Positions 1 through 20,841 of a stretch of DNA of 64,000 bases are shown here, one piece after another. The notes beneath the pieces were generated by a model. It had not been told where the DNA came from, made no database searches, and saw only the letters and a program-made list of their open reading frames with translations. Position 1 is the first letter of the stretch. Each line of letters begins with the position of its first letter. This DNA is from Bacteroidales bacterium (GTDB taxonomy: Bacteria > Bacteroidota > Bacteroidia > Bacteroidales > UBA12077): positions 73,612-137,611 of the forward strand of contig JANQHE010000024.1 in the NCBI GenBank assembly GCA_028282785.1, given 5' to 3'. Both the position numbers and the translations under genes were made by a program.

Positions 1-1051
1 AGTAGATGCCAATATGAACACTCTTTCTTATGAACTAAAGGTTCATCTTCCTTCAGATGAAAAATCGGAGTACATTATAGGAATACAGGGTGAAGACAGA
101 AAAAACGTTAATCATGACGCCCCTGTGCAAGTAATTCCCGATGCAACTGTTAATGGATTTTCTTTATTTGCTTTTGCGCAACGGACAATTTTTGGGTGTT
201 TAAAAACACAGGGAGGAATTCGTTATGATCGTAGGATATTAAAAACAACAACAAGAGATAATAATGAGGAAATTAATAAAAAATATGGAAATATAAGTGC
301 CTCTTTTGGTACAACTTACACTTTAAATGAAAATATTCTGTTTAAAGTAAACTTAGCTTCTGCATATCGCACACCGAATATAGCTGAGTTAACACAAGAC
401 GGTTGGCACGGAGTGCGCTATGAACAAGGTGATCCAAATCTAAAGGCTCAGAAGAATTATGAAATGGACTTTAGTTTTCAACTTAATAATCAATACTTAC
501 GAATTGACGCTTCCGGATTTTACAATTACGTACAAGATTATATTTATATGGCTCCTACAAGTGATACTTTATCAACAGGAGATAAAATATACAGGCATTC
601 CCAGAGTAATGCTGTTCTTTATGGGGGAGATGTTTCTTTAGATTACATTCCGACTGATTGGATTCAATATCAAATTACATATTCTTATTTAAGGGCAAAG
701 AAACAAGATGGAAGCTATCTACCGTTCATTCCTCCCGGTAATTTGATACTTAATACCAAAGTAAAAAAGAAACAGTGGCTTTTTATGCAAAATACCTACA
801 TGCTGTTGGGAGTTGAAATTGTTGAAAAGCAGAACAGACCGGCAATGTTTGAGACAAAGACGGATGGATATTGTTTGTTTAATATTGGATTTGGTACAGA
901 AATACAGTTAGCAAGACAAGAAATTAATCTTGGCATATTCGTAAATAACTTGTTTAACGAAAATTATTATGACCATTTATCCACCTTAAAAGAATTAGGT
1001 TTTTATAATCCCGGAAGAAACTTAAGCGTCTTAGTTAGTATCCCTTTCTAA
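1..1051 (+). CDS. TonB-dependent receptor, C-terminal beta-barrel part (5' end outside window)
   Basis: Reading frame of ORF 14..1051 stays open to the window edge. Alternating beta-strand pattern, ASAYRTPNIAEL motif, and a C-terminal GRNLSVLVSIPF ending in an aromatic residue, as in TonB-dependent outer-membrane barrels. Confidence 0.75.
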   Translation, partial: VDANMNTLSYELKVHLPSDEKSEYIIGIQGEDRKNVNHDAPVQVIPDATVNGFSLFAFAQRTIFGCLKTQGGIRYDRRILKTTTRDNNEEINKKYGNISASFGTTYTLNENILFKVNLASAYRTPNIAELTQDGWHGVRYEQGDPNLKAQKNYEMDFSFQLNNQYLRIDASGFYNYVQDYIYMAPTSDTLSTGDKIYRHSQSNAVLYGGDVSLDYIPTDWIQYQITYSYLRAKKQDGSYLPFIPPGNLILNTKVKKKQWLFMQNTYMLLGVEIVEKQNRPAMFETKTDGYCLFNIGFGTEIQLARQEINLGIFVNNLFNENYYDHLSTLKELGFYNPGRNLSVLVSIPF

Positions 1052-1187
1052 ATGATATCTTTTAATAATAGATTAAAATTTGAAAACTAGTATTTAACGA
1101 AATTTATTTAGAATGATTAAAAATAAGTTGGATAATTAAAATATTAAAAATATATTTGCGTGCGCATACAATTTAAATTTACTGAAT

Positions 1188-1607
1188 ATGTTGAATACAA
1201 AATGTAGAACAAATTGTTTCTGGGAATTCCCTTTATGTAAGCTATATAGAAATGTAGGCTTTCATGCAAAAATTATGGGATTAACACAATTGCAAGCTAA
1301 TATACTTTTGAGTATCTATAAAAATCAACCGTTTAGTTTTGATGACTTCTCTAAGATAATAGAGCTTAATACGGATAGTTTGGGTGCTACAAAATACCTA
1401 TTTGGAGAACAATACATTACTATTAATGATAAATCTCAAAACATCATACAAGTGACCATAAAAGGAATAAATACATGCGAAAAAATTAATAGGCTATATA
1501 AGCAAAACAAAAATATTATGCAGGGCCACTTTACAAAAACTCAATTGGGAGAATTGAATAAATCATTTAAAATACTGGCATTTACTATTAAAAATCAAAA
1601 AGTATAA
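1188..1607 (+). CDS. MarR-like winged-helix transcriptional regulator (divergent)
   Basis: 139 aa. LTQLQANILLSIY...FSFDDFSKII...VTIKGINTCEKI follows the MarR pattern (helix-turn-helix plus wing). First gene of a co-directional operon. Confidence 0.5.
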   Translation: MLNTKCRTNCFWEFPLCKLYRNVGFHAKIMGLTQLQANILLSIYKNQPFSFDDFSKIIELNTDSLGATKYLFGEQYITINDKSQNIIQVTIKGINTCEKINRLYKQNKNIMQGHFTKTQLGELNKSFKILAFTIKNQKV

Positions 1608-1610
1608 ATC

Positions 1611-1955
1611 ATGGAAAAGAATTATAAAGAATTAAACGAGAGGATTAACTCTCTATTAGCAGAATTTGGTAAAGAAAATCAAGGTATAATGAAAGGCTTT
1701 ATGCAAATGCATAAAACCATGGATAACTCCGAAGCATTAAGCCCTAAAACAAAAGAGTTAATGGCTATTGCTATTTCTGTAGTAAAACAATGCGAGGGGT
1801 GCATTGCCTACCATATAAACAGGGCATTAAAATGTGGAGCTACCCGTTCCGAAATAACGGAAACAATTGGAGTATCTGTTTTTATGGGAGGAGGGCCTTC
1901 TTTGGTTTATGCCTCAATTGCTTTGAAAGCTTTGGGTGATTTTGAAAATGAATAA
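1611..1955 (+). CDS. carboxymuconolactone decarboxylase (AhpD-like) family protein
   Basis: 114 aa with the CMD-family CxxC motif (QCEGCIAYH). Starts 4 nt after the previous stop. Confidence 0.8.
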   Translation: MEKNYKELNERINSLLAEFGKENQGIMKGFMQMHKTMDNSEALSPKTKELMAIAISVVKQCEGCIAYHINRALKCGATRSEITETIGVSVFMGGGPSLVYASIALKALGDFENE

Positions 1956-2000
1956 GTTTTATTCGGCTAAAAGAATAAAGTTTATAAAATAGAATTTAAT

Positions 2001-5000
2001 ATGAAAACTTATAGTTTGGGAATAGATGTCGGGTATTCTTCAATAAAAGTAGTTTTAATAAATAATCTGGATGAAATAGAATACGATAATTATGTATTAC
2101 ACAAAAGTAAGATAAAGAAAACATTAGAAAGTATCCTACTTGATATATCCGGGAAATTCAAACTTTCATCAATAGTAACCGGAGCGATTACCGGTTCTGT
2201 TGGGAAACAGCTTTCAAATAAGTTATCAATAAAAAAGGTATATGAAGTTATCTCAATTATTGAAGGTTGCCGGTATTTAAATATAGAAGCAAAATCCATA
2301 ATAGAGATAGGAGGGCAAAGTGCAAGGTATATTACAGGTTTTAACAGTAGTAAAAAAAATGCTTTGAAAATATCCTCAAATAATGATTGTGCAGCAGGAA
2401 CCGGATCTTTTATAGAAGAACAGGTATCCAGGTTAAATATAAAGATTGAGGAATTTGCTTCATATGCTCAAAAAGCTTCCACTATACCACGTATAGCTGG
2501 CAGGTGCAGTGTTTTTGCAAAAACAGATATTATTCATCATCAGCAAGAAGGAGTGTCTTTTCAGGATATATTGAAAGGACTATCCTATGCAATAGTAAAA
2601 AACTACAAAAATGCTGTTATTAAAAGGTCACCTGTTGAAAATCCAATATTATTTATAGGTGGAGTGGCTCATAACCAGGCAATAGCTGATGCACTTAGGG
2701 ATGTGTTGGATAAAAGTGAAAAAGAACTTATCATCCCTGAATATTTTAGTCATGCTGCGGCTATTGGCACAGCTTTAATTGCTAAAAGAGAAAAGCATAA
2801 GCTCGTGTTCCATAGTATGGTTAGTGATTTCCTGTTTTTAGATGAGGTAGGTTCTCAGCAAATCAACGAAGAAACCTTACCGGCCCTGCGTTCTGTTGGA
2901 AATGATACCATTGAAAGCAAACATAGTTTACAAAATTCCTCCGGGAACATCACTGATGAAGGTTTCTTTCTAGGAATAGATATTGGTTCTACCAGCACTA
3001 ATTTGGTTTTAATAAATAAGGAAAAAGAAATTTCAAATTATAAGTATGTTAGAACCAGGGGAAATCCTTTAGAAGCAGTTTACGAAGGCTTCAAACAAAT
3101 TCAAACAGAGATAAATGGTAAAATCAACATTGTTGGAGTTGGTATAACCGGTTCGGGCCGCCATATGATCGGGAAGGTAATAGGCGCTGATGTAATTAAG
3201 GATGAAATTACAGCACAAGCCAAAGCAGCTGTTAAGTTTGTTCCGGATGTAGATACAATATTTGAAATTGGGGGCCAGGATTCGAAATATATAAGTATTA
3301 CCAATGGAGCCATTACAGATTTTCAAATGAATAAAATCTGTGCGGCCGGAACAGGTTCTTTTCTGGAAGAACAAGCAAAAAAGTTCAATATTCCACTGAA
3401 TAAACTTGGAGAACTAGCTCTAAAAGGCCGACATCCTGTTAATCTGGGGGAAAGATGTACCGTTTTCATCGAATCCAGTGTTGCATCAAGTCTCTCGAAC
3501 GGCAAAAAAACAGAGGATATAGTTTCGGGATTATGTTATTCTATTGCAAAAAATTATTTGCACAGGGTAGTTGGGCAAAAAAAGATTGGAAAAAAAATAT
3601 TACTGCAAGGAGGAATAGCCTATAATCAGGGAGTTGTTAATGCAATGCGAATATTAACAAAAAAGGATATAACCATCACCCCGTATTTTAGTGTTACAGG
3701 AGCCTATGGAGCAGCTTTAATTGCACACGAAGAAATAAAAGAAGGAAAAACAAAGTTTGTAGGATTTGAAAATCTAAACCAACTAACTCTTTCTGTTGAA
3801 AAACAAAGTCATAAAAACAAAAAATCCAATCTTGATAAATACAACAAAAAAATAGAAGAAATAATATTTGAGGACTATGCTAACTCAATTGATCAAAATA
3901 AAAAGACCGTAGGTATTCCCAGGGCGTTGTTTACTTATGGTATGTTTCCAATGTTCAATGCAATATTTAAGAGCCTGGGATTTAATGTTTTGTTGTCTGA
4001 GTGGAGTGATGAAAATACGATCAAACTCGCTCAGGAATTTGCTCTTGAAGAAACTTGTTTCCCGGTAAAATTAATTCTGGGGCATGTTGCTGAACTGGCC
4101 TCCAAAGGTGTTGATTATATCTTTTTCCCTGATCTGTATACAGGAAATCACTCGGGTTGTAAATCAAGACAAAGCTATGGTTGTGCATATATGCAATTAG
4201 CATATAAAATAATAAACCAAGCAATGGAATTAGAAAAAAAAGGGATTAAGATAATTGCTCCAACCATAGCATTTAGTCTTGGTAAGAAATTTATGGATAA
4301 ATCTTTTTTCTCAATAGGAGAAACTCTTGGTAAAAGTAAAGATGCAACTGAGTTAGCAATTAAAAAAGGTTTTGAAGCAGCACAACGCTATATGCAAACA
4401 ATTGAACTAAATGGTAAAAAAACAATTAAAGAACTTGATCAGAATAAAATAACTTTTGTGATCATATCTAAAATTTACGGTGTTTCCGACCCCGTACTAA
4501 ATTTGGGGATTCCCTCCAAATTAATGGATATGGGGTATCAAGTTGTACCATTTTTTGATTTACCCAAAGGTGCAAATGTTTCAAAAGAGCATCCAAATAT
4601 GTATTGGCCATTTGGACAACAAATACTTGAACCGGCATATTTAGTAAGAGAGCATCCTAATATTTACGCTATTCTGTTAACTCATCATGGTTGTGGCCCC
4701 GACTCCGTACTGATACACTATTTTAAAGAAATAATGGGTAATAAACCATATCTCAACATTGAGATAGATGAGCATGCATCGCAGATTGGTGTTAATACTA
4801 GAATTGAAGCATTTGTAAATAGCCTGAAAAGTAGTAAACAAAATACGCCAAGGGAATTAAAGACCTATTTGAAAAATATCAGCTATAATAATTTAAACAT
4901 TAAGAATAATTTAACGGACCTAAATCCGGAAACTAAGATTTACATCCCTAATGTTTATCCCTATTCGGATTTATTTAAAGAAGTTTTGATCCAAAAAGGT

Positions 5001-6005
5001 TTTGATACGGAAGTTCTTACAACAAATAGTCATACAATTGAGTTAGGGCGAAAGCATACAATAAACAATGAATATTACTCTCTGACTTCATTACTTGGAG
5101 ATTGCTTTAGTATAATTGATGGTAGTTATGACGATCAGAATATTTCATTTTTTATACCTCAGACAGAAGGAGCAGAAGTAGAAGGACAATACAACAGAAT
5201 ATTAAGGACAAAGTTAGATGAGAACAAACATAACAAAATTAATATTATCGCTCCCTATTTAGAGGATCTCATTAAAATAGAATTAAGTGAACTAAAACTT
5301 ATTTTTTACTGCATATTGTCCGGAGATATTATAAGAACTGCAAATCAGAAAGACAGGAATAAATACCTCTTACAGATTAAAAAACTGATTCGGAACAGAA
5401 ATCTGGATATCCTAAATCTCAAAGAAATTGCAAGAGATGTTTATAAAAGCGTAAGGAAAAAATCATATGCAAAGAGAATTTTAGCTATTGGTGAACCGAT
5501 GGTGTTATTTAATGATTTTTTAAATGATAATACATTTAAAACCATTGAAGAACAAAGTAACAAGGTTATTTATTCTTCCTTTTCAGAAACAATATGGGTT
5601 TTTTGGAAGGACCACATTACTACAAATAAAAAACTCGGTTCAGTTGCATTCAAAAATAGATTATTGTATTTGAAAGAGGATATGGAACAAATTTCTAAAC
5701 AATTAAAAGAAGAAAGTCCATTTACTCCAAATATAGATGATCTCATAAAAAAAGCAAATAAAACCATTGGATATTACGCCGGAGGTTTTGCACGTTACAG
5801 ACAAGCTAAGGCTCTGTGCAACTCTATAAAAATCGATGGAATTATTACAGCATCATCCCTTTATGAAAACACTGGAATTTCTCTGAATATTTTGCATAAA
5901 GGTTTTTCAACAGAGAATTCAAAACCGTTACTTAACCTGACTTTTGACGGGAATAGCAATGAAAATAATAAAAGTAAAATAGAGTCATTCATGTATTATC
6001 TATAA
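2001..6005 (+). CDS. BadF/BadG/BcrA/BcrD-type double ATPase (2-hydroxyacyl-CoA dehydratase activase-like) fused to a large C-terminal dehydratase-related domain
   Basis: 1334 aa. Two tandem ASKHA ATPase modules start at GIDVGYSSIKV and GIDIGSTSTNL. Each carries the cluster-ligand motifs DCAAGTGSF/RCSVFA and KICAAGTGSF/RCTVFI, followed by GG(V/I)A.NQ. About 700 aa of C-terminal extension. Confidence 0.8.
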   Translation: MKTYSLGIDVGYSSIKVVLINNLDEIEYDNYVLHKSKIKKTLESILLDISGKFKLSSIVTGAITGSVGKQLSNKLSIKKVYEVISIIEGCRYLNIEAKSIIEIGGQSARYITGFNSSKKNALKISSNNDCAAGTGSFIEEQVSRLNIKIEEFASYAQKASTIPRIAGRCSVFAKTDIIHHQQEGVSFQDILKGLSYAIVKNYKNAVIKRSPVENPILFIGGVAHNQAIADALRDVLDKSEKELIIPEYFSHAAAIGTALIAKREKHKLVFHSMVSDFLFLDEVGSQQINEETLPALRSVGNDTIESKHSLQNSSGNITDEGFFLGIDIGSTSTNLVLINKEKEISNYKYVRTRGNPLEAVYEGFKQIQTEINGKINIVGVGITGSGRHMIGKVIGADVIKDEITAQAKAAVKFVPDVDTIFEIGGQDSKYISITNGAITDFQMNKICAAGTGSFLEEQAKKFNIPLNKLGELALKGRHPVNLGERCTVFIESSVASSLSNGKKTEDIVSGLCYSIAKNYLHRVVGQKKIGKKILLQGGIAYNQGVVNAMRILTKKDITITPYFSVTGAYGAALIAHEEIKEGKTKFVGFENLNQLTLSVEKQSHKNKKSNLDKYNKKIEEIIFEDYANSIDQNKKTVGIPRALFTYGMFPMFNAIFKSLGFNVLLSEWSDENTIKLAQEFALEETCFPVKLILGHVAELASKGVDYIFFPDLYTGNHSGCKSRQSYGCAYMQLAYKIINQAMELEKKGIKIIAPTIAFSLGKKFMDKSFFSIGETLGKSKDATELAIKKGFEAAQRYMQTIELNGKKTIKELDQNKITFVIISKIYGVSDPVLNLGIPSKLMDMGYQVVPFFDLPKGANVSKEHPNMYWPFGQQILEPAYLVREHPNIYAILLTHHGCGPDSVLIHYFKEIMGNKPYLNIEIDEHASQIGVNTRIEAFVNSLKSSKQNTPRELKTYLKNISYNNLNIKNNLTDLNPETKIYIPNVYPYSDLFKEVLIQKGFDTEVLTTNSHTIELGRKHTINNEYYSLTSLLGDCFSIIDGSYDDQNISFFIPQTEGAEVEGQYNRILRTKLDENKHNKINIIAPYLEDLIKIELSELKLIFYCILSGDIIRTANQKDRNKYLLQIKKLIRNRNLDILNLKEIARDVYKSVRKKSYAKRILAIGEPMVLFNDFLNDNTFKTIEEQSNKVIYSSFSETIWVFWKDHITTNKKLGSVAFKNRLLYLKEDMEQISKQLKEESPFTPNIDDLIKKANKTIGYYAGGFARYRQAKALCNSIKIDGIITASSLYENTGISLNILHKGFSTENSKPLLNLTFDGNSNENNKSKIESFMYYL

Positions 6006-6033
6006 AAGCGGTAATTGGTTTAAAAAATAAATA

Positions 6034-6543
6034 ATGAAAAAAGGAAATAAAATGTTAACAACCACAATATTAATGGGCATCATAGCCCTAATCCTTACCA
6101 TATACTCATACGTTAAAGGGACTTATATTACCGGTTTAAATAATGCTTTTAAAACTATGCTAAGTATTTTACCGATATTGATCCTGGCATTTATAATTAT
6201 CGGGATGTTGCATAGCCTTGATATGGCAAATAATGTAAAAGCAATATTAGAAAATCAAACCGGAATAAAAGGAATCAGCATTGCAACATTAGGAGGTATG
6301 TTAACACCCGGGGGCCCATTTGTTGCCCTTCCGTTAGCAGCCATATTATTGAAATCAGGTGCAGGTATCGGTCATGTGGTTGCTTATACAACAGCTTGGT
6401 CAACCTGGGAGATAATGCGAACACCATTTGAACTAAGCTTTTTAGGATGGAAATATGTTTTAGTAAAATGGAGCTGCATCTTTATTCTACCCATTATAAG
6501 CGGATTAACTGCTCAATTATTATTCTCATGGATTAAATTTTAA
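6034..6543 (+). CDS. small polytopic membrane protein, half-size permease-like
   Basis: 169 aa with 4-5 hydrophobic segments. GGMLTPGGPFVALPLAAILLKSGAG resembles permeases of the COG0701/ArsP-like type, but this is a weak recollection. Confidence 0.45.
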   Translation: MKKGNKMLTTTILMGIIALILTIYSYVKGTYITGLNNAFKTMLSILPILILAFIIIGMLHSLDMANNVKAILENQTGIKGISIATLGGMLTPGGPFVALPLAAILLKSGAGIGHVVAYTTAWSTWEIMRTPFELSFLGWKYVLVKWSCIFILPIISGLTAQLLFSWIKF

Positions 6544-6554
6544 AACGATCAACT

Positions 6555-8339
6555 ATGTTTAAAAATAAGTCATTAAACTTTTTAATAGATATTTCAAAAA
6601 AAGGAAAATATCGTTTGGTTATATCAGGCATACTTATCTTTTTTAGTTCTATTTGTGCACTTGGGCCCTATTATATTACCTACTTAATTATCGATAAAAT
6701 AATACACCCTCCGTTTATCATGCACGACCTGTTGATACTTGGCGCTATTGCTGCCACGTTTATTGTCGGGCAGATGATCTTTTCAGGTATTGCAATGACC
6801 CAATCTCATATAGCTGCATATAATATTTTATTCGACTTACGTGTAGCTGTTGCTAATAAGTTAACAAAATTACCACTAGGTTATTACTCCGATACCAGTT
6901 CAGGGAAAATCAAAAAAATTATGATGGGGAATATTGAAGCAATTGAAGAATTTATAGCCCATAATTTAGTTGATTTAATTTCGGTTATTTTTCTTCCGGT
7001 TATCATTTTTTCATGGTTAGCTTCTCTAAATCTTACATTGGCGTTTTTAAGTATTTTCCCTGTTTTTCTTGGTGTAGCATTACAACGATTCAGGATGAAA
7101 ATAGAGGCAGGTAATATCCGCAAATTTTTCAAAATAAAATCAGATATGAACACTACAATTATTGATTTTATAAAAGGAATGCCTGTAATTAAAGCATTTA
7201 ATTTGTCGGTTTTTTCTTTTAAAAAATACAAAGAAGAAGCTGACAGATATAGTCAGTACTGGATTAATATGAATAAAAATGCGGCAGCATTTTTTGCAAC
7301 GTATGCTCTTTTGATGGATTGCGGTGTATTGATATTATTGCCGGTGGGAGGTTATATGTACGCAGTTGGTAAAATCACACTTTCTGCTTTTTTAATGTTC
7401 ATGTTTATTGGAATAGGGCTCTCCCGTTTTATGAAACAGCTTACCAACTTTGGTTCAAACCTAACCCAGATTTTTAAAGGTGTTGATGAAATAAGGGAAA
7501 TTTTTAAAACAAAAGAAATTGTTAACAACGGAAAAGTTTCCAAACTGGAAAATTATGATGTGGAATTTAACCATGTTTCATTTTCTTATGGTGACCAGCT
7601 CGTACTCGATGATGTAAATTTTAAATTAAAACAGGGAACAATTACGGCATTGGTCGGACCGTCCGGAGCCGGAAAAACTACTATTGCCAGGTTAATACCG
7701 CGCTTTTGGGATGTCACAAAAGGAGAAATTACCATAGGAAATCATAACCTAAAATCGATTCAGGGCGATGAATTAATGAAGAATGTTGGTTTTGTGTTCC
7801 AGGATATTTTCATGTTCAATGATACTGTAATTGAGAACATCCGCATGGGAGACACATCTGTTTCAGAAGAAAAAGTAAAAGAAATTGCCAAACAGGCCCA
7901 GGCTGATGAATTTATTCAAGGATTAAAAGACGGATATCATACGGTTATCGGCCCTACAGGTGTTCATCTGAGTGGAGGAGAACAACAACGCATTGCCATC
8001 GCCCGGGCGTTGGTTAAAGATTCACCTGTTATTGTGTTAGATGAGGCAACCAGTTATGCAGATACAGAAAATGAAGATAAAATTCAAAAAGCACTGAATG
8101 CACTTCTAAAAAACAAAACCGTAATAGTAATTGCGCACAGGCTCTCTACCATTCAAAATGCCAATCAGATACTCTATATCGAAAAAGGAAAAATCAGGGA
8201 ACAAGGTAACCACAAACAATTAATCAATGAGAACGGTAGGTACAAGCAAATGTGGGATCTGCATATGGATGCAGCTCAGTGGGGGATTAAACAAACCGGG
8301 GGATCATTGACAAACAGAAAGGAGGAAGTAACATGTTAG
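6555..8339 (+). CDS. ABC transporter permease/ATP-binding protein (exporter half-transporter)
   Basis: N-terminal 6-TM domain. Walker A GPSGAGKTT, signature LSGGEQQR, Walker B VIVLDEATS, H-loop IAHRLST. Confidence 0.9.
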   Translation: MFKNKSLNFLIDISKKGKYRLVISGILIFFSSICALGPYYITYLIIDKIIHPPFIMHDLLILGAIAATFIVGQMIFSGIAMTQSHIAAYNILFDLRVAVANKLTKLPLGYYSDTSSGKIKKIMMGNIEAIEEFIAHNLVDLISVIFLPVIIFSWLASLNLTLAFLSIFPVFLGVALQRFRMKIEAGNIRKFFKIKSDMNTTIIDFIKGMPVIKAFNLSVFSFKKYKEEADRYSQYWINMNKNAAAFFATYALLMDCGVLILLPVGGYMYAVGKITLSAFLMFMFIGIGLSRFMKQLTNFGSNLTQIFKGVDEIREIFKTKEIVNNGKVSKLENYDVEFNHVSFSYGDQLVLDDVNFKLKQGTITALVGPSGAGKTTIARLIPRFWDVTKGEITIGNHNLKSIQGDELMKNVGFVFQDIFMFNDTVIENIRMGDTSVSEEKVKEIAKQAQADEFIQGLKDGYHTVIGPTGVHLSGGEQQRIAIARALVKDSPVIVLDEATSYADTENEDKIQKALNALLKNKTVIVIAHRLSTIQNANQILYIEKGKIREQGNHKQLINENGRYKQMWDLHMDAAQWGIKQTGGSLTNRKEEVTC

Positions 8340-10060
8340 AAGTTATAAAACTAATAGCAGGGAAATATCGTAGCCGTATGGTGAGGGTTACCCTTATATC
8401 GGTTTCAGAAGCTATTTTTGGGGCTGTGCCATTTGTCGTATTGTATTTTCTTTTATGCAACGTTATCGACAATACATTTACCGTACAAAAACTTTGGACC
8501 TATATATATATTATAGCAGGTAGCGCTATTTTTCGAATGTTGTTTTCATACCTGAGTGTTACCCGTTCGCGTGCAGATGGAACAAATATGGTTAAAGACT
8601 TAAGGTTAAGGTTGGGCGAACATATCCGAAAACTTCCTTTAGGTTTTTTTTCCAGCCACGATACCGGTGAATTGTCAAATAAAACACTGGATAATGTTAA
8701 TAAAGTGGAACAAATCATTACCATGCTTTTACCCGAGTTTATTTCAACACTTGTGCTGAGCATGTTAGTAGCTACAGGTTTGTTTTATATCGACTATCGA
8801 ATGGCAATTGCAACCATTATAACCATGCCGGTTGCTTTGAGCCTGCTTATTTGGGCAAAAAAAATAATGCATGTAAGAGGAAAAGCGTTGTATCAATCTT
8901 CATCGGATTTAGCAAATGGTATTATCGAATTTGTTAGTGGTATCAAGTTTATCAAATCTTTTAATAATTCTCAGAAGAAATTTGATGACCTGGTTGAAAA
9001 AATGGACGATTTCAAAAAGCGAAGCTTGAAAGTTGAAGGCACTTTAAGTCCTGTTATGACATTGTCTGGTATCTCAATTGATTTTGGATTGGTCATGTTG
9101 ATATTGATGGGCTCATATTTTATTGTTGGTGGCAGCCTGAGTGGAAAGACATTCATCATTTTTATTATAATCAGTTCCCGTTTTTTTGAGAATCTTAAAA
9201 CCATATCGATCAATTATGTGAAGATTAGATACCTGTTAATTGCCGGTCAATCCATTCAAAATTTATTCAATGAAAAACAACTTTCAGGAAAGAAATCTGA
9301 CTTGGATTTAAAAAAGCAAAATATTGTTTTCAACAACGTTTCGTTTGGATATAATGGAACAAAAGTATTAAAGGAGATTAACGTTACTATTCCTCACAAT
9401 TCATTAACTGCATTGGTTGGCCCTTCCGGTTCAGGAAAATCTACAATGGCAAACCTTATAGCAAGGTTCTATGATGTGGACAATGGTGATATTTGTATTG
9501 GACCGTATAACCTTAAAAATGCAGAACCGGGAAGAATTCTTCAACAGGTAAGCATGGTATTTCAAAAAGTTATCCTTTTTAAAGATACCATATATAACAA
9601 TATTAAGGTAGGTAAAAATGATGCAACCGAACAAGAGGTGATAAATGCAGCCAAAAAAGCAAACTGTCATGATTTTATTTCAAAACTGCCGAATGCTTAT
9701 GAAACCATGGTTGACGAAAATGGAACAAACCTCTCAGGGGGAGAACAACTCAGGCTTTCAATTGCACGGGCGATGTTAAAAGATGCCCCTATTGTTCTAC
9801 TCGACGAAGCCACTTCTTCTCTCGACCCTGAAAATGAGTTTTTTATACAAGAGGCTATTTCAAACTTGCTGAAAAACAGAACAGTTGTAGTTATTGCTCA
9901 CCGCCTTAAAACCATTAAAAATGCAGATAAAATAATTGTTCTTAATGATGGCCGGATTTATGAAGAAGGAACCCATCGCGATTTATTGACAAAACAAGGT
10001 TTATATAGTAAAATGTGGCAAACCCAGGAAAGTACGGTTGGCTGGCAGCTTACAAACTAA
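8333..10060 (+). CDS. ABC transporter permease/ATP-binding protein (exporter half-transporter, partner of 6555..8339)
   Basis: Start overlaps the upstream stop by 7 nt. Walker A GPSGSGKST, signature LSGGEQLR, Walker B IVLLDEATS, IAHRLKT. Confidence 0.9.
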   Translation: MLEVIKLIAGKYRSRMVRVTLISVSEAIFGAVPFVVLYFLLCNVIDNTFTVQKLWTYIYIIAGSAIFRMLFSYLSVTRSRADGTNMVKDLRLRLGEHIRKLPLGFFSSHDTGELSNKTLDNVNKVEQIITMLLPEFISTLVLSMLVATGLFYIDYRMAIATIITMPVALSLLIWAKKIMHVRGKALYQSSSDLANGIIEFVSGIKFIKSFNNSQKKFDDLVEKMDDFKKRSLKVEGTLSPVMTLSGISIDFGLVMLILMGSYFIVGGSLSGKTFIIFIIISSRFFENLKTISINYVKIRYLLIAGQSIQNLFNEKQLSGKKSDLDLKKQNIVFNNVSFGYNGTKVLKEINVTIPHNSLTALVGPSGSGKSTMANLIARFYDVDNGDICIGPYNLKNAEPGRILQQVSMVFQKVILFKDTIYNNIKVGKNDATEQEVINAAKKANCHDFISKLPNAYETMVDENGTNLSGGEQLRLSIARAMLKDAPIVLLDEATSSLDPENEFFIQEAISNLLKNRTVVVIAHRLKTIKNADKIIVLNDGRIYEEGTHRDLLTKQGLYSKMWQTQESTVGWQLTN

Positions 10061-10072
10061 ATATTACTAATT

Positions 10073-10831
10073 ATGTTAAAAATTAATAATCTTCATGTAA
10101 ATATCGAAAATAAAGAGGTGTTGAAAGGAGTAAACCTGGAAATTCCTCACAATGAAGTACACTCCTTATTTGGGCCTAATGGATCAGGTAAAAGCGTTTT
10201 AATCTCTACAATTATGGGATATCCTGAATATGAAATTACCGGTGGTGAAATATTATTCAACGGGCAAAATATTAACCAACTAAGCATTGATGAAAGGGTT
10301 AAGCTTGGTATTGGGGTTTCCGAACAACGCCCTCCCACAATAAAAGGTGTAAAATTAAGAAACCTGATCGAATTACTGATGCCAGGGGAAATACAGGATG
10401 AAACATTCAGGAAGGGAATGTTAGAGCGATTTAATATGGATAAGTTTCTGGATCGAAACATAAATGATGGCCTTTCCGGTGGAGAAACAAAAAAGTCGGA
10501 ATTATTCCTTTTAATGTTGGCTAGGCCAGAGTTTCTTATTCTTGATGAACCAGATTCCGGAGTCGACCCTGAGCATCTTAAGAAAATAGGAGCAATGATA
10601 AATGAAACATTACAAAAAAAAATCCAGGGAAATGAGTTGTGTAATCCCTATGGAAGGAATTCAGGGTTGATAGCAACACATTCTGCTGTAATCTTGGAAT
10701 ATGTCCATACTGATAAGGCTCATATCATGCTTGATGGGAAAATACACTGTAGTGGAAATCCTGCAGTTATGATGGATCAAATAAAATCAAATGGCTATAG
10801 TTATTGTATTAATTGCCACCAAAATATATAG
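10073..10831 (+). CDS. sufC: SufC-like Fe-S assembly ATPase
   Basis: MLKINNLHV...EVHSLFGPNGSGKS...GYPEYEITGGEILFNG...LSGGETKKSE...LILDEPDSGVD follows SufC closely. The tail is atypical and contains CINCH. Confidence 0.75.
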   Translation: MLKINNLHVNIENKEVLKGVNLEIPHNEVHSLFGPNGSGKSVLISTIMGYPEYEITGGEILFNGQNINQLSIDERVKLGIGVSEQRPPTIKGVKLRNLIELLMPGEIQDETFRKGMLERFNMDKFLDRNINDGLSGGETKKSELFLLMLARPEFLILDEPDSGVDPEHLKKIGAMINETLQKKIQGNELCNPYGRNSGLIATHSAVILEYVHTDKAHIMLDGKIHCSGNPAVMMDQIKSNGYSYCINCHQNI

Positions 10832-10842
10832 GAGTACATGTT

Positions 10843-12048
10843 ATGAGTGATTTTTTAAATAAAGATAATAACATAGGAAAGATAAATATCGATTATTCCG
10901 AATTTTCACAAATTGAGAATGAAACAAAAGCAATAAACTCAATTAGTGAACTAAAAGAAGATGAAATAGAAACTTTACATTCAGTTGGGATCAATTTTCA
11001 AGATTACTCTGATACTGGAAAGTTTCTTATGTATGGAGTGGATGTTTTTTCATTAACTCCAAAAATTCCGGGAGTAGAAATAATTCCATTAAAAGCAGCA
11101 TTATTAATTTATCCGGAAATTAAAGAAAAGTATTATTTTAAAGCTGTTAATAAGGATCAGGATGAATTTACTAAAACAGCTTTTGAAAAAGAACAGAACG
11201 GATATTTTATCCATGTTAAAAAGAATGTTAAAGTAAAAGATCCATTACATACTGCATTGTTTATGCATCGGGAAATGAGTACCATGTGTATCCATAATAT
11301 TGTAGTATTAGAAGAAGGTGCGCAGCTACATTTAATTACCGGGTGTGCTTCTGGATGTACTATACAAGGAGGGTTACATATAGCTGTAAGTGAGCTATTT
11401 GTAGGTAAAGGAGCCAAATTAATTAGTACAATGATACATAACTGGGGCCCTGACTTCGTTGTGCAGCCCAGAACGGCAACTATAGTTGAGAAAAGTGGGA
11501 CATTTGTTAGTAATTATTATTCTGTAAAGCCTCCTAAAGTTATTCAAACTAATCCGTTTACCCACTTAAAAGGAAAAAATTCCAATGCAAAATACATGAC
11601 AGTAATTGCATCTTTACCAGATACCTATAACGATATTGGAGGAACGGTACTTATGGAGGGAGAAAATTCAGGTGCTGAACTTGTTGCAAGGGCTGTAAAT
11701 CATGGTGGTACAGTTATTCAAAATGGTTTATTAATAGGGGCCGCAAAAAATGCGAGAGCCCACGTCGATTGCTCGGGGTTAATGTTGAGCGATAGGGGTT
11801 ATATAGAAGCTATTCCCGGACTAAGAGCAGTACACCCTGATGCTCGCATGTCACATGAAGCCGCGATTGGCAAAATTGACATTGGAGAAGTAAATTATTT
11901 ACAGTCAAAAGGGTTAGATGAAATGCAAGCTATTGCACTAATAGTTAGAGGGTTTCTTGATATTGGGATTGAAGTAGAAGGGCTCGAACCTGAACTTGAA
12001 AAAACCATACAGGAAATTGCTGAACTTTCAGGGCATGGAGAAGAATAA
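10843..12048 (+). CDS. SufB/SufD-family Fe-S assembly scaffold protein
   Basis: C-terminal SHEAAIGKIDIGEVNYLQSKGLDEMQAIALIVRGFLD matches the SufB/D signature. The ORF track starts at TTG 10813. ATG 10843 follows an AGGAG and the sufC stop, so I prefer it. Confidence 0.75.
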   Translation: MSDFLNKDNNIGKINIDYSEFSQIENETKAINSISELKEDEIETLHSVGINFQDYSDTGKFLMYGVDVFSLTPKIPGVEIIPLKAALLIYPEIKEKYYFKAVNKDQDEFTKTAFEKEQNGYFIHVKKNVKVKDPLHTALFMHREMSTMCIHNIVVLEEGAQLHLITGCASGCTIQGGLHIAVSELFVGKGAKLISTMIHNWGPDFVVQPRTATIVEKSGTFVSNYYSVKPPKVIQTNPFTHLKGKNSNAKYMTVIASLPDTYNDIGGTVLMEGENSGAELVARAVNHGGTVIQNGLLIGAAKNARAHVDCSGLMLSDRGYIEAIPGLRAVHPDARMSHEAAIGKIDIGEVNYLQSKGLDEMQAIALIVRGFLDIGIEVEGLEPELEKTIQEIAELSGHGEE

Positions 12049-12076
12049 TTTAATAGCAGAATAAATATTATTAACA

Positions 12077-12697
12077 ATGAGAAATAAAATGAAATGTAGA
12101 CAAGAAGATCCAAGAGATTCTTCTTTACAAAAAACTAAGAGAAAACATGGACCGACAAGTACCCATTTACATTCTCCGGAAACAGTCTTTAAAGAAATAA
12201 AAATTTTAAACGGAGATATCTTTCTAGATATAGGGTGCGGAATAGGTGAGTATTCTATGTTTGCATCAAATTTAGTTGGGGAAGCAGGGAAAATTTATTC
12301 TCTGGATATTAATGAAGTGGTTATAGAAAATCTACAAAATGAGATCAGAGACAAAGGCATATATAATATGGAAGCTTTTGTTGCAGATATAACTGAAATA
12401 ATACCTCTGGAAGATCAGAGCGTTGATATATGCTTCATGGTTACTGTTTTACACTCAATTAATTTGAGCGAATATGAAGAAAAAATATTCAACGAAATTC
12501 GCCGAGTTTTAAAACCTAATGGTAGGTTAATTACGATTGATTGTAAAAAAGAACTGTCACATTTTGGCCCTCCTGCGCATTTAAGAATATCAGAAAAAGA
12601 ATTAATTGACATGGCGGCTAAATATAGTTTTAAAAATACAAACTATACCGACCTGACATATAATTATATGCTTCAGTTTGATGTGTTAAAACCATAA
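12077..12697 (+). CDS. class I SAM-dependent methyltransferase
   Basis: Motif I FLDIGCGIGEYS, post-I YSLDIN, motif III LKPNGRLI. 206 aa. Confidence 0.75.
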   Translation: MRNKMKCRQEDPRDSSLQKTKRKHGPTSTHLHSPETVFKEIKILNGDIFLDIGCGIGEYSMFASNLVGEAGKIYSLDINEVVIENLQNEIRDKGIYNMEAFVADITEIIPLEDQSVDICFMVTVLHSINLSEYEEKIFNEIRRVLKPNGRLITIDCKKELSHFGPPAHLRISEKELIDMAAKYSFKNTNYTDLTYNYMLQFDVLKP

Positions 12698-12711
12698 AAA
12701 TTGAATAGAAA

Positions 12712-14238
12712 ATGGCATACATTCAAAATTGGCAAGACAGAATCATTAAACAAGATGAAATTGAAAAATACTTGATTAATGGAAAAGATTTTATCGATGA
12801 GAATAAAATTACGACTCACTTAGAAACAAATAAAAATCCGGATAAAAATAAAATCAGGGATATAATCCAAAAAGCAATTTCAATTGAACGGCTTGAACCT
12901 AACGAAGTGGCATCACTTTTAAATGTTACCGATAATGAATTGTGGGAAGAAATATACGAAGCGGCAATTATTATTAAACGAAAAGTTTATGATAACAGAA
13001 TTGTATTTTTTGCTCCTCTCTACTGTTCTAACCTATGTGTTAATTCATGTTTGTATTGCGGATTTAGAAGAGAAAACGGTAAAATTGACCGCAGGTTACT
13101 TAACATGGAGGAAGTAAAAAACGAAACTCGTGCTATAACCAGGGTAGGACATAAAAGGATGATTATTGTTTTCGGGGAACATCAGTTTAGCGATATCGAT
13201 TATATGATAGAAGCTATCCAAAATGTTTACTCGGTTAAAGAGAAAGCTCAGAATAACGATAAAATGGGAGAAATTCGCAGGATAAATGTTAACGCAGCTC
13301 CTATGGAAATATCGAAACTTAAAAGGCTTTATAATGCAGGTATAGGAACCTACCAGGTTTTTCAGGAAACATATCATAAACCAACGTATAACTTGGTTCA
13401 TCCAAAAGGCATTAAATCAAATTATCGCTGGCGCCTTTACGCTCTTCACAGAGCTATGGATGCCGGAATTGATGACCTTGCAATTGGAGCGTTATTTGGG
13501 ATCTATGATTGGAAATTTGAAGTAATGGGATTACTTTATCACGCCATTGATTTAGAAAGACAATTTAACATTGGCCCTCATACCATTTCGTTCCCAAGAT
13601 TAACACCCGCTATTGATTCTGATTACAGCGCAAACTCCAAATACCTTGTTAACGATAATGATATGAAAAAACTTGTCGCTGTACTTCGATTAGCAGTACC
13701 TTATTCAGGATTAATCTGTACGGTAAGAGAAAAGCCGGATATCCATATGGAATTATTAAAGATAGGTTGTACACAGACCGATGCTTCCAGTAACATTGGT
13801 ATAGGCGGATATACGGAAGCGATGCAAAATGAAGCAATACATCAAAAAGAATATCTGAAAAATGGCAAGAATAAAGGTCAGTTTACTTTAAACGATAACA
13901 GAAGTTTAGATGAAATGATACGAGAAATAGCTAAACTTGGAATGATTTCTTCATTCTGCACAGCCGGTTATCGTTGTGGTCGTACAGGAGACAAAATAAT
14001 GAGTCTCTTAAAAACCGGTACCGAAGGTAAATTTTGTAAGTTAAATGCGGTACTTACATATAAAGAATTTTTAGATGATTATGCTTCGGAAGAAACACGT
14101 GTTATAGGTGAAAAGATAATTATAGATGAACTTGAGGAAATAGAGAAAATGCCATTTTATAAAAAAGGGAAACTATATAATAATTTCATTGAGAAGTACA
14201 TTAAAATTAGTGGTGGAGAAAGAGATATTTATATATAA
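12712..14238 (+). CDS. HydG-like (ThiH/HydG family) radical SAM tyrosine-lyase-type enzyme with C-terminal cluster domain
   Basis: RIVFFAPLYCSNLCVNSCLYCGFR (CX3CX2C at nt 13036-13059) and GHKRMIIVFGEH. C-terminal QFTLNDNRSLDEM...SFCTAGYRCGRTGDKIM...FCKLNAVLTYKEFLDDY parallels the HydG auxiliary-cluster domain. Confidence 0.8.
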   Translation: MAYIQNWQDRIIKQDEIEKYLINGKDFIDENKITTHLETNKNPDKNKIRDIIQKAISIERLEPNEVASLLNVTDNELWEEIYEAAIIIKRKVYDNRIVFFAPLYCSNLCVNSCLYCGFRRENGKIDRRLLNMEEVKNETRAITRVGHKRMIIVFGEHQFSDIDYMIEAIQNVYSVKEKAQNNDKMGEIRRINVNAAPMEISKLKRLYNAGIGTYQVFQETYHKPTYNLVHPKGIKSNYRWRLYALHRAMDAGIDDLAIGALFGIYDWKFEVMGLLYHAIDLERQFNIGPHTISFPRLTPAIDSDYSANSKYLVNDNDMKKLVAVLRLAVPYSGLICTVREKPDIHMELLKIGCTQTDASSNIGIGGYTEAMQNEAIHQKEYLKNGKNKGQFTLNDNRSLDEMIREIAKLGMISSFCTAGYRCGRTGDKIMSLLKTGTEGKFCKLNAVLTYKEFLDDYASEETRVIGEKIIIDELEEIEKMPFYKKGKLYNNFIEKYIKISGGERDIYI

Positions 14239-17290: not shown

Positions 17291-19039
17291 TTAATGGATG
17301 GCTACAGGTTTGTTCAATCTGATTTGATCTGTTTTTTCTTCAGAATACCATAAATTAAAATACAAACCTTTATTGAGTAATAATTCTTCGTGTTTCCCGC
17401 TTTCCATAATTTTACCATTGTTTAATACGATAATTTGGTCTGCATTTTTTATGGTTTTTAAATGATGAGCGATAACAATTACAGTTCTTTCTTGCACAAG
17501 ATTGGAAATAGCCATCTGTAAATTTCTTTCATTTATAGGATCAATATTACTTGTGGCTTCATCCAGAATAAGAATCGGAGCATCTTTGATCAAAGCCCTT
17601 GCAACGGATAAACGTTGTTTTTGGCCTCCCGATAAACCAGCGCCTCCTTCTCCTAACATGGTATCATATTGTTGAGGTAGTGTCATTATAAAATCATGGA
17701 TCATTGCTTTTTTTGCTGCTTGAATAACCTGTTGTTTTGTCGCTGATTTATTTCCTATTTTTATATTCTCATATATCGTGTCCGATAATAAAACCACGTT
17801 TTGCATAACAATGGAGATATTAGATAATAAACTATTATATTCTATATCTCTAAGTTCCGATCCTCCAATTTTGATGGTTCCATTATTAATATCCCAAAAT
17901 CGGAGTAAAAGATTTGTAATGGTTGATTTTCCGGAACCGGAAGGGCCAACCAAAGCAATCATTGATTTTTCAGGAATATTTATTGAAATATTGTTAAGAG
18001 AGAATCCATCATTCTCGTAAGAAAAACAAACTTCATTAAATTGGATGTCCGAACTTACAGGGAAACTTGATGTTCCTTCGTTTTTTACTTCCGGGGAGTC
18101 TTTTATTTTACAAATTCTTGCATAACTATCTCTGGCAGTAATGTATAAAAGCCAATGTTTATCTGCTTGATAGAAGGGTTTATAGAATTCAAGCCCAAGT
18201 ACAATAAACAAAAGAAAATGAAAGATCTCAATTTGATGTGTCCAGACTAACAATGCGCCTATGGAAATAATAAACAGATAGCTTAACTCTAAAAACATAA
18301 AATAACTTCCGGTTATTCTTGCGGTAATTTTTGCTGTTTTATAAGAACTCCCACTTAAATCATTAATAGAACTATTTAATTTATTTATAAACCCGGGATT
18401 TTCATAGAATGATTTTAGAACCGGGATTCCTTTTGTATATTCAACAAATAAACTTGCCATATCAGCCAATTTATTTTGACTTTTGGTATTTATTTTTTCT
18501 GTTTTTTGAGTACCCTTTATTAATATAAAAATCCCGAAAGGCAAGAATGCTATCATAGCTAATCCAAGTTTCCAATTAAAAATAAACAGTGCTGTTCCTA
18601 AAATTAACGAAGTAATTATATCTGCAGAAATTCTGGTCCATAAATGACCTACAATTCCCTCAATATTATTTACGTCCTTATGTATTATGGTACCTATTTC
18701 ACCGATCCGCTCTTTAGAAAAAAACTCAAGCGAGAATTTCTTTAATTTAAGCAACATATCTTTTCTAATTCTTTTAGATATTCTAAAACCTGCATAATGT
18801 TCAAATAAATCAGCTGTACAATCGCAAATAGCACGAAATATAATTAAGCCACCTATATAAAACCAATAAAAATTAAGTTGTGTGTTCACAGTCGAGCCAG
18901 GAGATATATTTTTTATTAGCTTTAGGATTATTAATACCAGGGCAACACCGGCAAGGCCTTTCAGTACGAATAGAAAACTTGCTGAAAACAAATATAATTT
19001 TTCTTTTGGCTGTATTTCTTTAAATATTTTGGTTTTCAT
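17291..19039 (-). CDS. ABC transporter permease/ATP-binding protein (exporter half)
   Basis: 6-TM domain. GPSGSGKST, LSGGQKQR, ILILDEATS, IAHHLKT. Confidence 0.9.
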   Translation of the reverse strand: MKTKIFKEIQPKEKLYLFSASFLFVLKGLAGVALVLIILKLIKNISPGSTVNTQLNFYWFYIGGLIIFRAICDCTADLFEHYAGFRISKRIRKDMLLKLKKFSLEFFSKERIGEIGTIIHKDVNNIEGIVGHLWTRISADIITSLILGTALFIFNWKLGLAMIAFLPFGIFILIKGTQKTEKINTKSQNKLADMASLFVEYTKGIPVLKSFYENPGFINKLNSSINDLSGSSYKTAKITARITGSYFMFLELSYLFIISIGALLVWTHQIEIFHFLLFIVLGLEFYKPFYQADKHWLLYITARDSYARICKIKDSPEVKNEGTSSFPVSSDIQFNEVCFSYENDGFSLNNISINIPEKSMIALVGPSGSGKSTITNLLLRFWDINNGTIKIGGSELRDIEYNSLLSNISIVMQNVVLLSDTIYENIKIGNKSATKQQVIQAAKKAMIHDFIMTLPQQYDTMLGEGGAGLSGGQKQRLSVARALIKDAPILILDEATSNIDPINERNLQMAISNLVQERTVIVIAHHLKTIKNADQIIVLNNGKIMESGKHEELLLNKGLYFNLWYSEEKTDQIRLNKPVAIH

Positions 19040-19089
19040 GATATATTAGATTTTGTAAAGTATTATGTTTTCCAATTTTATTTTGAGAT

Positions 19090-20841
19090 TTAGAAAACTG
19101 GTTTTGTTTCTTTTTTTATTGTCCATCTGTCTACTTCGTTTTGAGCACTAAACATTTCAACATATGTTTCAGATTCAGTAATTAGCTCATTATGCGTACC
19201 CTTTGCTAAGATCTCTCCATCTTCTAATAGTACTATTTGATCTGAATCAACTATGGTGTGCATGTTATGAGCAATAATTATTAATGTCCTGTTTTTTCTA
19301 AGCTCCCTGATCGCCTGATGTATTAAAAATTCATTATGGGGATCAATTGCTGATGTCGCTTCATCGAGTATAATAATTGGAGAATCTTTTAACATTACCC
19401 GGGCAATGGAAATGCGTTGTTTTTCTCCACCTGATAGCTTTGCTCCCCCTTCTCCCACAATGGTATCAAGGCCCTTAGGTAAAGATGTTATTAATGATGT
19501 AAGTTGTGCTTTCTTAATTACTTCAAATAGTTCTTGTTCAGTTGCATTTTTTTTACCTAAAGCGATATTTTCGCGAATCGAAGTATTAAATAAGAATACA
19601 TCCTGTTGAACTATTGATACGAGTGAGGTTAGATCCTCTTCTTTAATATTACTTATTTCCACATTGTTAATTGTAACAGAGCCATTATAGGACTGAACAA
19701 ATCCCAGAAGTATGTGAGCTAAAGTGGTTTTACCCGAACCGGAACTGCCTATTAAAGCTGTTGTGGTATGCTTTTTTATTTTAAGATTGACATTCTTAAG
19801 AACTTCTGTTTCTTCATAAGAATAGGAAAGATTTTTTATTTGGATCTCCCCGTTATTTATTTTAGCGGAATCTGTTTTTTTATTTTCGTTAACCGGTTTT
19901 TCCGAAAGAATGCTGTTTATCCTGCTTTTGGAAGTGTTAAAGGTCATTAATGAATGATGCATTCTCATTAACCTTGTTAAAGTAGTATTAAAAAAGATAG
20001 ACATAACCACGGATATTATGAAAATGTTCGTCGATATTAGCTCTTTAAATAATAAAGTCGAACCAACAATAATAGTTATAAATAATCCAACGTCTTGAAG
20101 AATAGCAAGTATTGAACCACCGTATGCTGAAATTGATACCGAGATTTTTCTGAGCCATTTTTCGTATACCTCCATTTTACCCAGCACTTGTTTAGTTTTC
20201 TTTTCACTCTTATTAAAGGCTTTAATTACGGTTATTGATGATATATATTCGATTATTTCTTCGTTTAGTTCTTTAGTGTCTTTAGCATATCTGTCGGAAA
20301 AAGGTTTAAGTACTTTATTAAATATTAAAAAGAATATAAAAATTAAAGGCAGGGATGAGATAATACATAATCCCAGGCGCCAGTCCAGCAATGTTACAAA
20401 AGTGAATATAAGTAAGGGAACTGCCGAAGACAATATAAGATCGGGCAAAGCATGCCCAACGTATAATTCTACTTGTTCAACATCATGATTAACTATATTT
20501 GATAGATCTCCAATCTTACGTTTCTTAAAAAATGAGAGTGGTAAAGAGCGCATATGTTTTATTAACCTGAGCCTTATATTAGCTAAAACCGAAAATGCAT
20601 TTTTATGCGAATGCGATATCGTAATCGAAGAGAATACAACTTTTATTGTTAATAACAAGAGAATAATTATTAACCTGCCAATGATAAACTCTTTGCTTCT
20701 CGCTTCAGAAACTAAATTTGCAAGTATTTGCATAACAAATAAAAAAGAAATATATCCTGCAGCAACACCAGATGCCGATATTATCCCGGAGCGTAATGCC
20801 TTGCGTTTCTCCTTTTTACTAAAAATTGATGTTTTATTCAT
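19090..20841 (-). CDS. ABC transporter permease/ATP-binding protein (exporter half)
   Basis: 6-TM domain. GSSGSGKTT, LSGGEKQR, IIILDEATS, IAHNMHT. Confidence 0.9.
   Translation of the reverse strand: MNKTSIFSKKEKRKALRSGIISASGVAAGYISFLFVMQILANLVSEARSKEFIIGRLIIILLLLTIKVVFSSITISHSHKNAFSVLANIRLRLIKHMRSLPLSFFKKRKIGDLSNIVNHDVEQVELYVGHALPDLILSSAVPLLIFTFVTLLDWRLGLCIISSLPLIFIFFLIFNKVLKPFSDRYAKDTKELNEEIIEYISSITVIKAFNKSEKKTKQVLGKMEVYEKWLRKISVSISAYGGSILAILQDVGLFITIIVGSTLLFKELISTNIFIISVVMSIFFNTTLTRLMRMHHSLMTFNTSKSRINSILSEKPVNENKKTDSAKINNGEIQIKNLSYSYEETEVLKNVNLKIKKHTTTALIGSSGSGKTTLAHILLGFVQSYNGSVTINNVEISNIKEEDLTSLVSIVQQDVFLFNTSIRENIALGKKNATEQELFEVIKKAQLTSLITSLPKGLDTIVGEGGAKLSGGEKQRISIARVMLKDSPIIILDEATSAIDPHNEFLIHQAIRELRKNRTLIIIAHNMHTIVDSDQIVLLEDGEILAKGTHNELITESETYVEMFSAQNEVDRWTIKKETKPVF

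Follow-up and report, generated by a model that had tools for sequence, protein, structure and literature searches.

A second HydG of a Bacteroidales bacterium belongs to a widespread subtype with a shifted auxiliary-cluster cysteine

Results

The window analysed here, a 64,000-nucleotide stretch of a Bacteroidales bacterium genome, contains a hydG gene that very probably encodes a HydG of a long-established subtype whose chemistry, by analogy with canonical HydG, would be normal. The CX5CX19C spacing of its auxiliary-cluster cysteines is that of a widespread and already published branch of HydG, and not that of a new enzyme. This reading draws on the sequence, family, fold, conservation and gene context of the protein, and on the sole-copy status of the subtype in other genomes.

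The window gene is assigned to the HydG family

In a profile search the window protein scored 433.6 bits against the HydG model TIGR03955, above the equivalog cut-off of 312.15, and 253.6 bits against the ThiH model TIGR02351, below the cut-off of 380. Its best solved relative was the HydG of T. italicus, 4WCX (E 4e-130), and an AlphaFold2 model of the window protein with a mean pLDDT of 90.2 matched this structure with a TM-score by target of 0.96, a Z score of 52.8 and an rmsd of 1.4 over 453 residues. The radical-SAM CX3CX2C motif is found in the translation, and the match to 4WCX confirms the TIM-barrel fold. The two proteins are about 44–47% identical and share the fold, the radical-SAM motif and a histidine, H290 in the window protein and His265 in T. 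italicus, where it is a ligand of the dangler iron (PMC8162317). Compared with 4WCX, the window protein has an N-terminal extension of about 20 residues and an insertion near residues 372–388 that was predicted with low confidence. The coordinates of these and the other features are collected in Table 1.

With ThiH (7PD1; about 27% identity) the window protein shares the tyrosine-cleaving radical-SAM barrel, but ThiH is without the C-terminal cluster domain, and this genome's own ThiH, encoded on contig C7, is shorter. As the score fell under the ThiH cut-off and the C-terminal cluster domain is present, ThiH identity was rejected. Several relatives carry the annotation 2-iminoacetate synthase. 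On the basis of family score and predicted fold, the window gene is assigned as encoding HydG, a maturase that helps to build the iron centre of iron-iron hydrogenases, in agreement with the HydG-like identity proposed in the initial annotation.

Table 1. Features of the hydG gene and of the co-directional genes that precede it (window positions).
Feature	Position	Strand	Basis or remark
Co-directional run ending in hydG	14-14238	+	domain searches
Double BcrAD_BadFG/DUF2229 activase, ArsP_1 permease, two ABC exporter-fold half transporters	2001..10060	+	upstream cassette; order shared with L160 and L161 at 58-85% identity
sufC-like ATPase and sufB-like scaffold (SmsCB-type minimal pair)	10073..12048	+	scores below curated cut-offs
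Class I SAM methyltransferase	12077..12697	+	ends 14 nt before hydG
hydG, CX5CX19C subtype, 508 aa radical-SAM H-cluster maturase	12712..14238	+	TIGR03955 and model match to 4WCX
Radical-SAM CX3CX2C motif, C109-C113-C116	13036..13059	+	translation, alignment
R149, Arg conserved in 243/243 aligned HydGs; aligns with T. italicus R129	13156..13158	+	alignment
H290, invariant in 243 aligned HydGs; aligns with T. italicus His265	13579..13581	+	alignment
C416 (TGC), first auxiliary-cluster Cys; invariant in 243 aligned HydGs	13957..13959	+	translation, alignment
G419 (GGT), at the canonical second-Cys position	13966..13968	+	translation, alignment
C422 (TGT), relocated second Cys, putative replacement ligand	13975..13977	+	translation, alignment
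C442 (TGT), third auxiliary-cluster Cys; invariant in 243 aligned HydGs	14035..14037	+	translation, alignment

The shifted cysteine marks a single branch of HydG

The auxiliary-cluster motif of the window protein, at 13957-14037, reads CX5CX19C; the canonical CX2CX22C spacing is absent, as residue 419 is a glycine. There are no gaps in the alignment of this segment with 4WCX and the C. hydrogenoformans enzyme 4RTB, the two solved HydGs, both of the canonical type. In this alignment G419 falls on the second canonical cysteine and C422 on a methionine in 4WCX and a lysine in 4RTB, which upholds the proposal that the middle cysteine has been relocated by three residues, and the distance from the first to the last cysteine, C416 to C442, is 26 residues, as had been counted. 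The positions matching C416, G419, C422 and C442 in the 4WCX chain are C394, C397, M400 and C420. Since that chain has 480 residues and its numbering ends at 466, an offset of 14 residues would make these C380, C383, M386 and C406. The window protein therefore retains the first and third auxiliary cysteines of 4WCX, and differs from it by a glycine in place of the second cysteine and a cysteine in place of Met386.

The shifted arrangement was highly conserved. All 119 full-length top homologues had Gly, Cys and Cys at positions 419, 422 and 442, as did 79 of 80 GTDB loci, the 80th ending at a contig edge. At further loci the shifted cysteine was found in 88 of 89, accompanied at position 419 by Gly in 83 and Asp in 5, and around a distant member of the subtype it was kept in 120 of 120 proteins (Gly in 107, Asp in 13). 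On a tree of 123 proteins, built by a quick method with a midpoint root and with long branches flagged, the motif label changed once (SH-aLRT 99), so the motif does define a clade, as had been suggested. The subtype branch spans at least 13 phyla and includes members of the Bacteroidota, Bacillota, Spirochaetota, Planctomycetota, Omnitrophota, Elusimicrobiota, Fibrobacterota, Atribacterota, Chloroflexota, Thermotogota, Thermodesulfobacteriota, Myxococcota, Kiritimatiellota and Marinimicrobia; C422 is fixed throughout it. Judged from alignment and tree, the exclusivity of Cys419 and Cys422 reflects one ancestral event, and not many independent ones.

Other positions vary within the subtype. The Asp419 sub-variant, which keeps the shifted cysteine, is represented by loci L093 and L094 (both 10001-11452). 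An extra cysteine just ahead of the radical-SAM motif, C105 (13024-13026), occurs in 173 of 199 subtype members, and another, C353 (13768-13770), in 174 of 194. Position 436 is a cysteine in 138 of 199 members and a glycine in the window protein.

The subtype occurs with hydrogenase genes and as the only HydG of its genome

Within 10 kb of hydG, 56 of the 80 GTDB subtype loci had a hydA, hydE, hydF or TM1266-like neighbour (hydE at 28 loci, hydA with the H-cluster motif at 24, hydF at 20 and a TM1266-like gene at 25), and several, such as L061, L077, L081, L091 and L095, carried a full hyd set. Such a neighbour was also present at 57 of the 89 further loci, while 24 of the 80 GTDB loci were without one. 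In 46 of 50 genomes, many of them MAGs of unstated completeness, the CX5CX19C protein was the sole HydG match with an E value of 1e-60 or lower, and the other four added a canonical copy. Five genomes, three of them single-contig chromosomes, were also assessed with family models. Each encoded exactly one HydG, of the CX5CX19C subtype, together with HydE, HydF (in one of the five at 304 bits, slightly below the cut-off) and one to three hydrogenase large subunits. Since a sole HydG of this subtype alongside hydA, hydE and hydF must serve maturation, we infer that it is used for H-cluster maturation in these genomes, in the role described for HydG (PMC10114646).

The initial annotation had read the motif as the mark of a paralog with altered cluster chemistry. 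That reading does not hold, as most carriers lie in hyd clusters or are the sole HydG of their genome; the variant is thus present in what are by context bona fide maturation HydGs.

The surroundings of the subtype showed further regularities. In Odoribacter laneus (L048) and a related MAG (L046), in both of which the CX5CX19C hydG is the sole copy, a suf operon of sufB-, sufC- and sufD-like genes and four more genes lies directly upstream of hydG (upstream of 10001 in both loci); HydE, HydF and HydA of O. laneus are encoded away from this suf-linked hydG, and its HydE match (G078 C2 258941-259954) contains one in-frame TGA. In Prolixibacteraceae-like genomes (L042, L044, L050-L055, L058-L060, L063 and L071) a nuoE-nuoF-hydA-like run comes before the subtype hydG, and five or six conserved genes (clusters c7-c11) come after it as a block. 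At 16 loci, including L017-L021, L024, L025 and L167, the 3' end of the subtype hydG is followed or overlapped by a conserved ORF of roughly 100 aa (cluster c5), and the two of these ORFs that were searched had no Pfam match.

The window hydG is a second copy at the end of a conserved cassette

This genome also encodes a canonical CX2CX22C HydG, at C43:83235-84662, making the window gene its second hydG and bearing out its status as a paralog here. Contig C43 carries three HydA genes with the H-cluster motif, and HydE and HydF are encoded on C63 and C3, respectively. At the canonical locus (L166, G000 C43 82885-85314) one TM1266-like gene precedes hydG and two small genes that look related follow it, with hydE and hydF on other contigs. 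Because the CX5CX19C subtype was present in just two of 56 family genomes, this one and G032, because the G032 copy lies outside the lineage of the window gene on the tree of 123 proteins, and because HydG of some kind is present in 30 of 36 genus relatives, our data suggest that the window hydG was gained horizontally. GC content gave no signal of recent transfer (0.31-0.36 in the cassette versus 0.32 in the genome).

The co-directional run that ends in hydG comprises, in order, genes for a TonB receptor, a small regulator-like ORF, a CMD-family protein, the double activase with DUF2229, the ArsP_1 permease, two ABC half transporters, the sufC-like and sufB-like proteins, the methyltransferase and HydG. 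The eight-gene order from activase to hydG is kept in L160 and L161 (1-11527 in each) at 55-85% identity, with the methyltransferase likewise preceding hydG. The sufC-sufB order ahead of hydG is shared by L157, L160 and L161, and L157 keeps sufC-sufB-hydG; in the one remaining relative (L158 and L159) hydG lies between a TonB receptor gene on its upstream side and a methyltransferase gene on its downstream side. The full operon was thus found at three loci only, those of the window, L160 and L161, and no further full cassette was found among 80 GTDB loci, 80 metagenome loci and 9 order-level matches. A promoter scan gave hits at chance level only.

Additional genes border the cassette. The TonB receptor has a full length of 740 aa, of which the window holds the last 345. 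Upstream of the window (L269 7392-14663) are genes for a COX1 heme-copper oxidase subunit I, a likely subunit II, a PepSY_TM protein and a MarR regulator, a run that shares its direction with the TonB receptor gene and leads into it. Two more ABC half transporters, again a pair and of similar general type, are encoded on the minus strand 3 kb downstream, at window 17291-20841.

We considered whether the lineage of the window protein had left hydrogenase maturation. It would then supply CO, CN, p-cresol or Fe(CO)x(CN) to a non-hydrogenase client, with the activase, SufCB and the ABC pair as candidates, or serve metal handling. The four closest relatives of the window protein (72-80% identity) form one branch with it (SH-aLRT 100), giving a five-protein lineage (P0001, P0002, P0003, P0004 and P0008), and no hyd genes lie beside hydG at any of these five loci, where the contexts are instead SufCB, the methyltransferase, the TonB receptor, the ABC pair and the activase. 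The conservation of the eight-gene order in L160 and L161 favours such a recruitment, as does the presence in this genome of a canonical HydG, HydE and a separate ThiH, which would leave this copy redundant for known jobs. However, in the alignments no catalytic or cluster position had changed specifically in this lineage, and there was no private change at highly conserved positions, the changes seen being conservative only; strong purifying selection acts on the lineage (dN/dS of about 0.05-0.11, dS being close to saturation). In two of the four related contexts only part of the cassette is retained. In addition, hydG is often found apart from hydEF, as in the loci without a hyd neighbour described above, and in O. 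laneus the sole hydG likewise comes after a suf operon. We therefore regard it as unlikely that this lineage supplies CO, CN or organometallic iron to a conserved non-hydrogenase cassette in Bacteroidales-like anaerobes. If it did, the shifted cysteine would have been inherited, and would have no part in the functional change. The suggestion that the motif tracks this operon was likewise not sustained, since cassette-like surroundings were confined to the five-protein sub-lineage. A short signature for this lineage was dropped, as the sister clade matched it too.

C422 is the probable second ligand of the auxiliary cluster

A joint alignment of 243 HydGs was used to compare 199 members of the subtype with 44 canonical proteins, a narrow canonical sample drawn mostly from the Bacteroidota with a few Bacillota. 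C422 was present in 199/199 subtype members and 0/44 canonical HydGs, whereas Cys419 was present in 44/44 canonical HydGs and in no subtype member, where position 419 was Gly in 197 and Asp in 2. Cysteines at 419 and 422 are mutually exclusive, in favour of C422 as the ligand in the subtype. The window protein has no cysteine in residues 354-508 other than C416, C422 and C442, so a three-cysteine site in its C-terminal domain requires C422. The loop of residues 421-440 was predicted with only moderate confidence (pLDDT 75 and 72). Taken together, C416, C422 and C442 most likely bind the auxiliary [4Fe-4S] cluster.

A less probable alternative still than recruitment of the lineage is that C422 is not a simple replacement. 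The cubane would then sit on C416, C442 and another group, such as C353, or Asp419 in the sub-variant, where the aspartate could be a fourth or alternative cluster ligand, and C422 would adjust the dangler site or its redox properties, such that the chemistry or product release differs measurably while maturation still works. The subtype does have other fixed differences around the C-terminal site (T354, T356, S359, I429, E438 and L444, all but I429 also noted as fixed changes in the comparison of the window protein with canonical HydG), frequent extra cysteines at 105, 353 and 436, and a minority with Asp at 419. Yet C422 is invariant, whereas the cysteines at 353, 436 and 105 vary, the Asp419 sub-variant retains C422, and the established mode of binding uses three protein cysteines (PMC10114646). 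That the glycine codon stems from an error in sequencing, or from an inactivating mutation private to this protein, has practically no chance of being true: a single base separates GGT from TGT, but Gly419 with Cys422 is common to hundreds of relatives in at least 13 phyla, a close relative uses the synonymous codon GGC, and an error could not also have created C422. The identical window protein is also on record in NCBI, Logan and ENA.

Discussion

Variation in the C-terminal motif of HydG has been described previously (PMC9431212, citing Duffus et al. 2012, BBA 1824:1254). The same study used two patterns, C-x(2)-C-x(22)-C and C-x(5)-C-x(19)-C, to look for HydG, and through the latter assigned CLAU_RS03260 of Clostridium autoethanogenum as HydG bioinformatically. 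Compared by motif description, CLAU_RS03260 and the window protein have the same cysteine spacing, and in both the CX3CX2C motif lies at 109-116. They differ in setting, as CLAU_RS03260 was treated as the HydG of its organism, whereas the window gene accompanies a canonical copy and lies in a non-hyd cassette. Our search of the literature found no biochemical or structural study of the CX5CX19C subtype.

We propose that the second auxiliary-cluster ligand moved once, in the common ancestor of the subtype, from +3 to +6 of the cluster-binding loop, with Gly419 probably giving space for the re-routed loop. By analogy with canonical HydG, the N-terminal CX3CX2C cluster and SAM would cleave tyrosine to p-cresol and dehydroglycine, and the fragment would travel down the barrel to the auxiliary [4Fe-4S] cluster on C416, C422 and C442. 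There, the dangler Fe, held by His290 and free L-cysteine, would collect CO and CN, and Fe(CO)2(CN)Cys would be released to HydE and HydF. In this organism the gene is an extra copy, probably gained horizontally, within a metal-uptake and Fe-S-assembly cassette, where it most likely adds maturation capacity for HydE, HydF and hydrogenases that are encoded elsewhere.

From the conservation and contexts of its carriers, the motif gives no indication of altered function, and the role of the second copy in the cassette is a question separate from the motif. For the family as a whole, motif searches that require CX2CX22C overlook a large branch of genuine HydGs or give them the wrong name, and hydrogenase-maturing organisms are consequently undercounted. 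The subtype is also a natural ligand-shift variant that bears on how far the five-iron site is tied to an exact placement of its middle cysteine. Were the cassette lineage to serve a non-hydrogenase client, this would be new, as a HydG acting outside H-cluster assembly.
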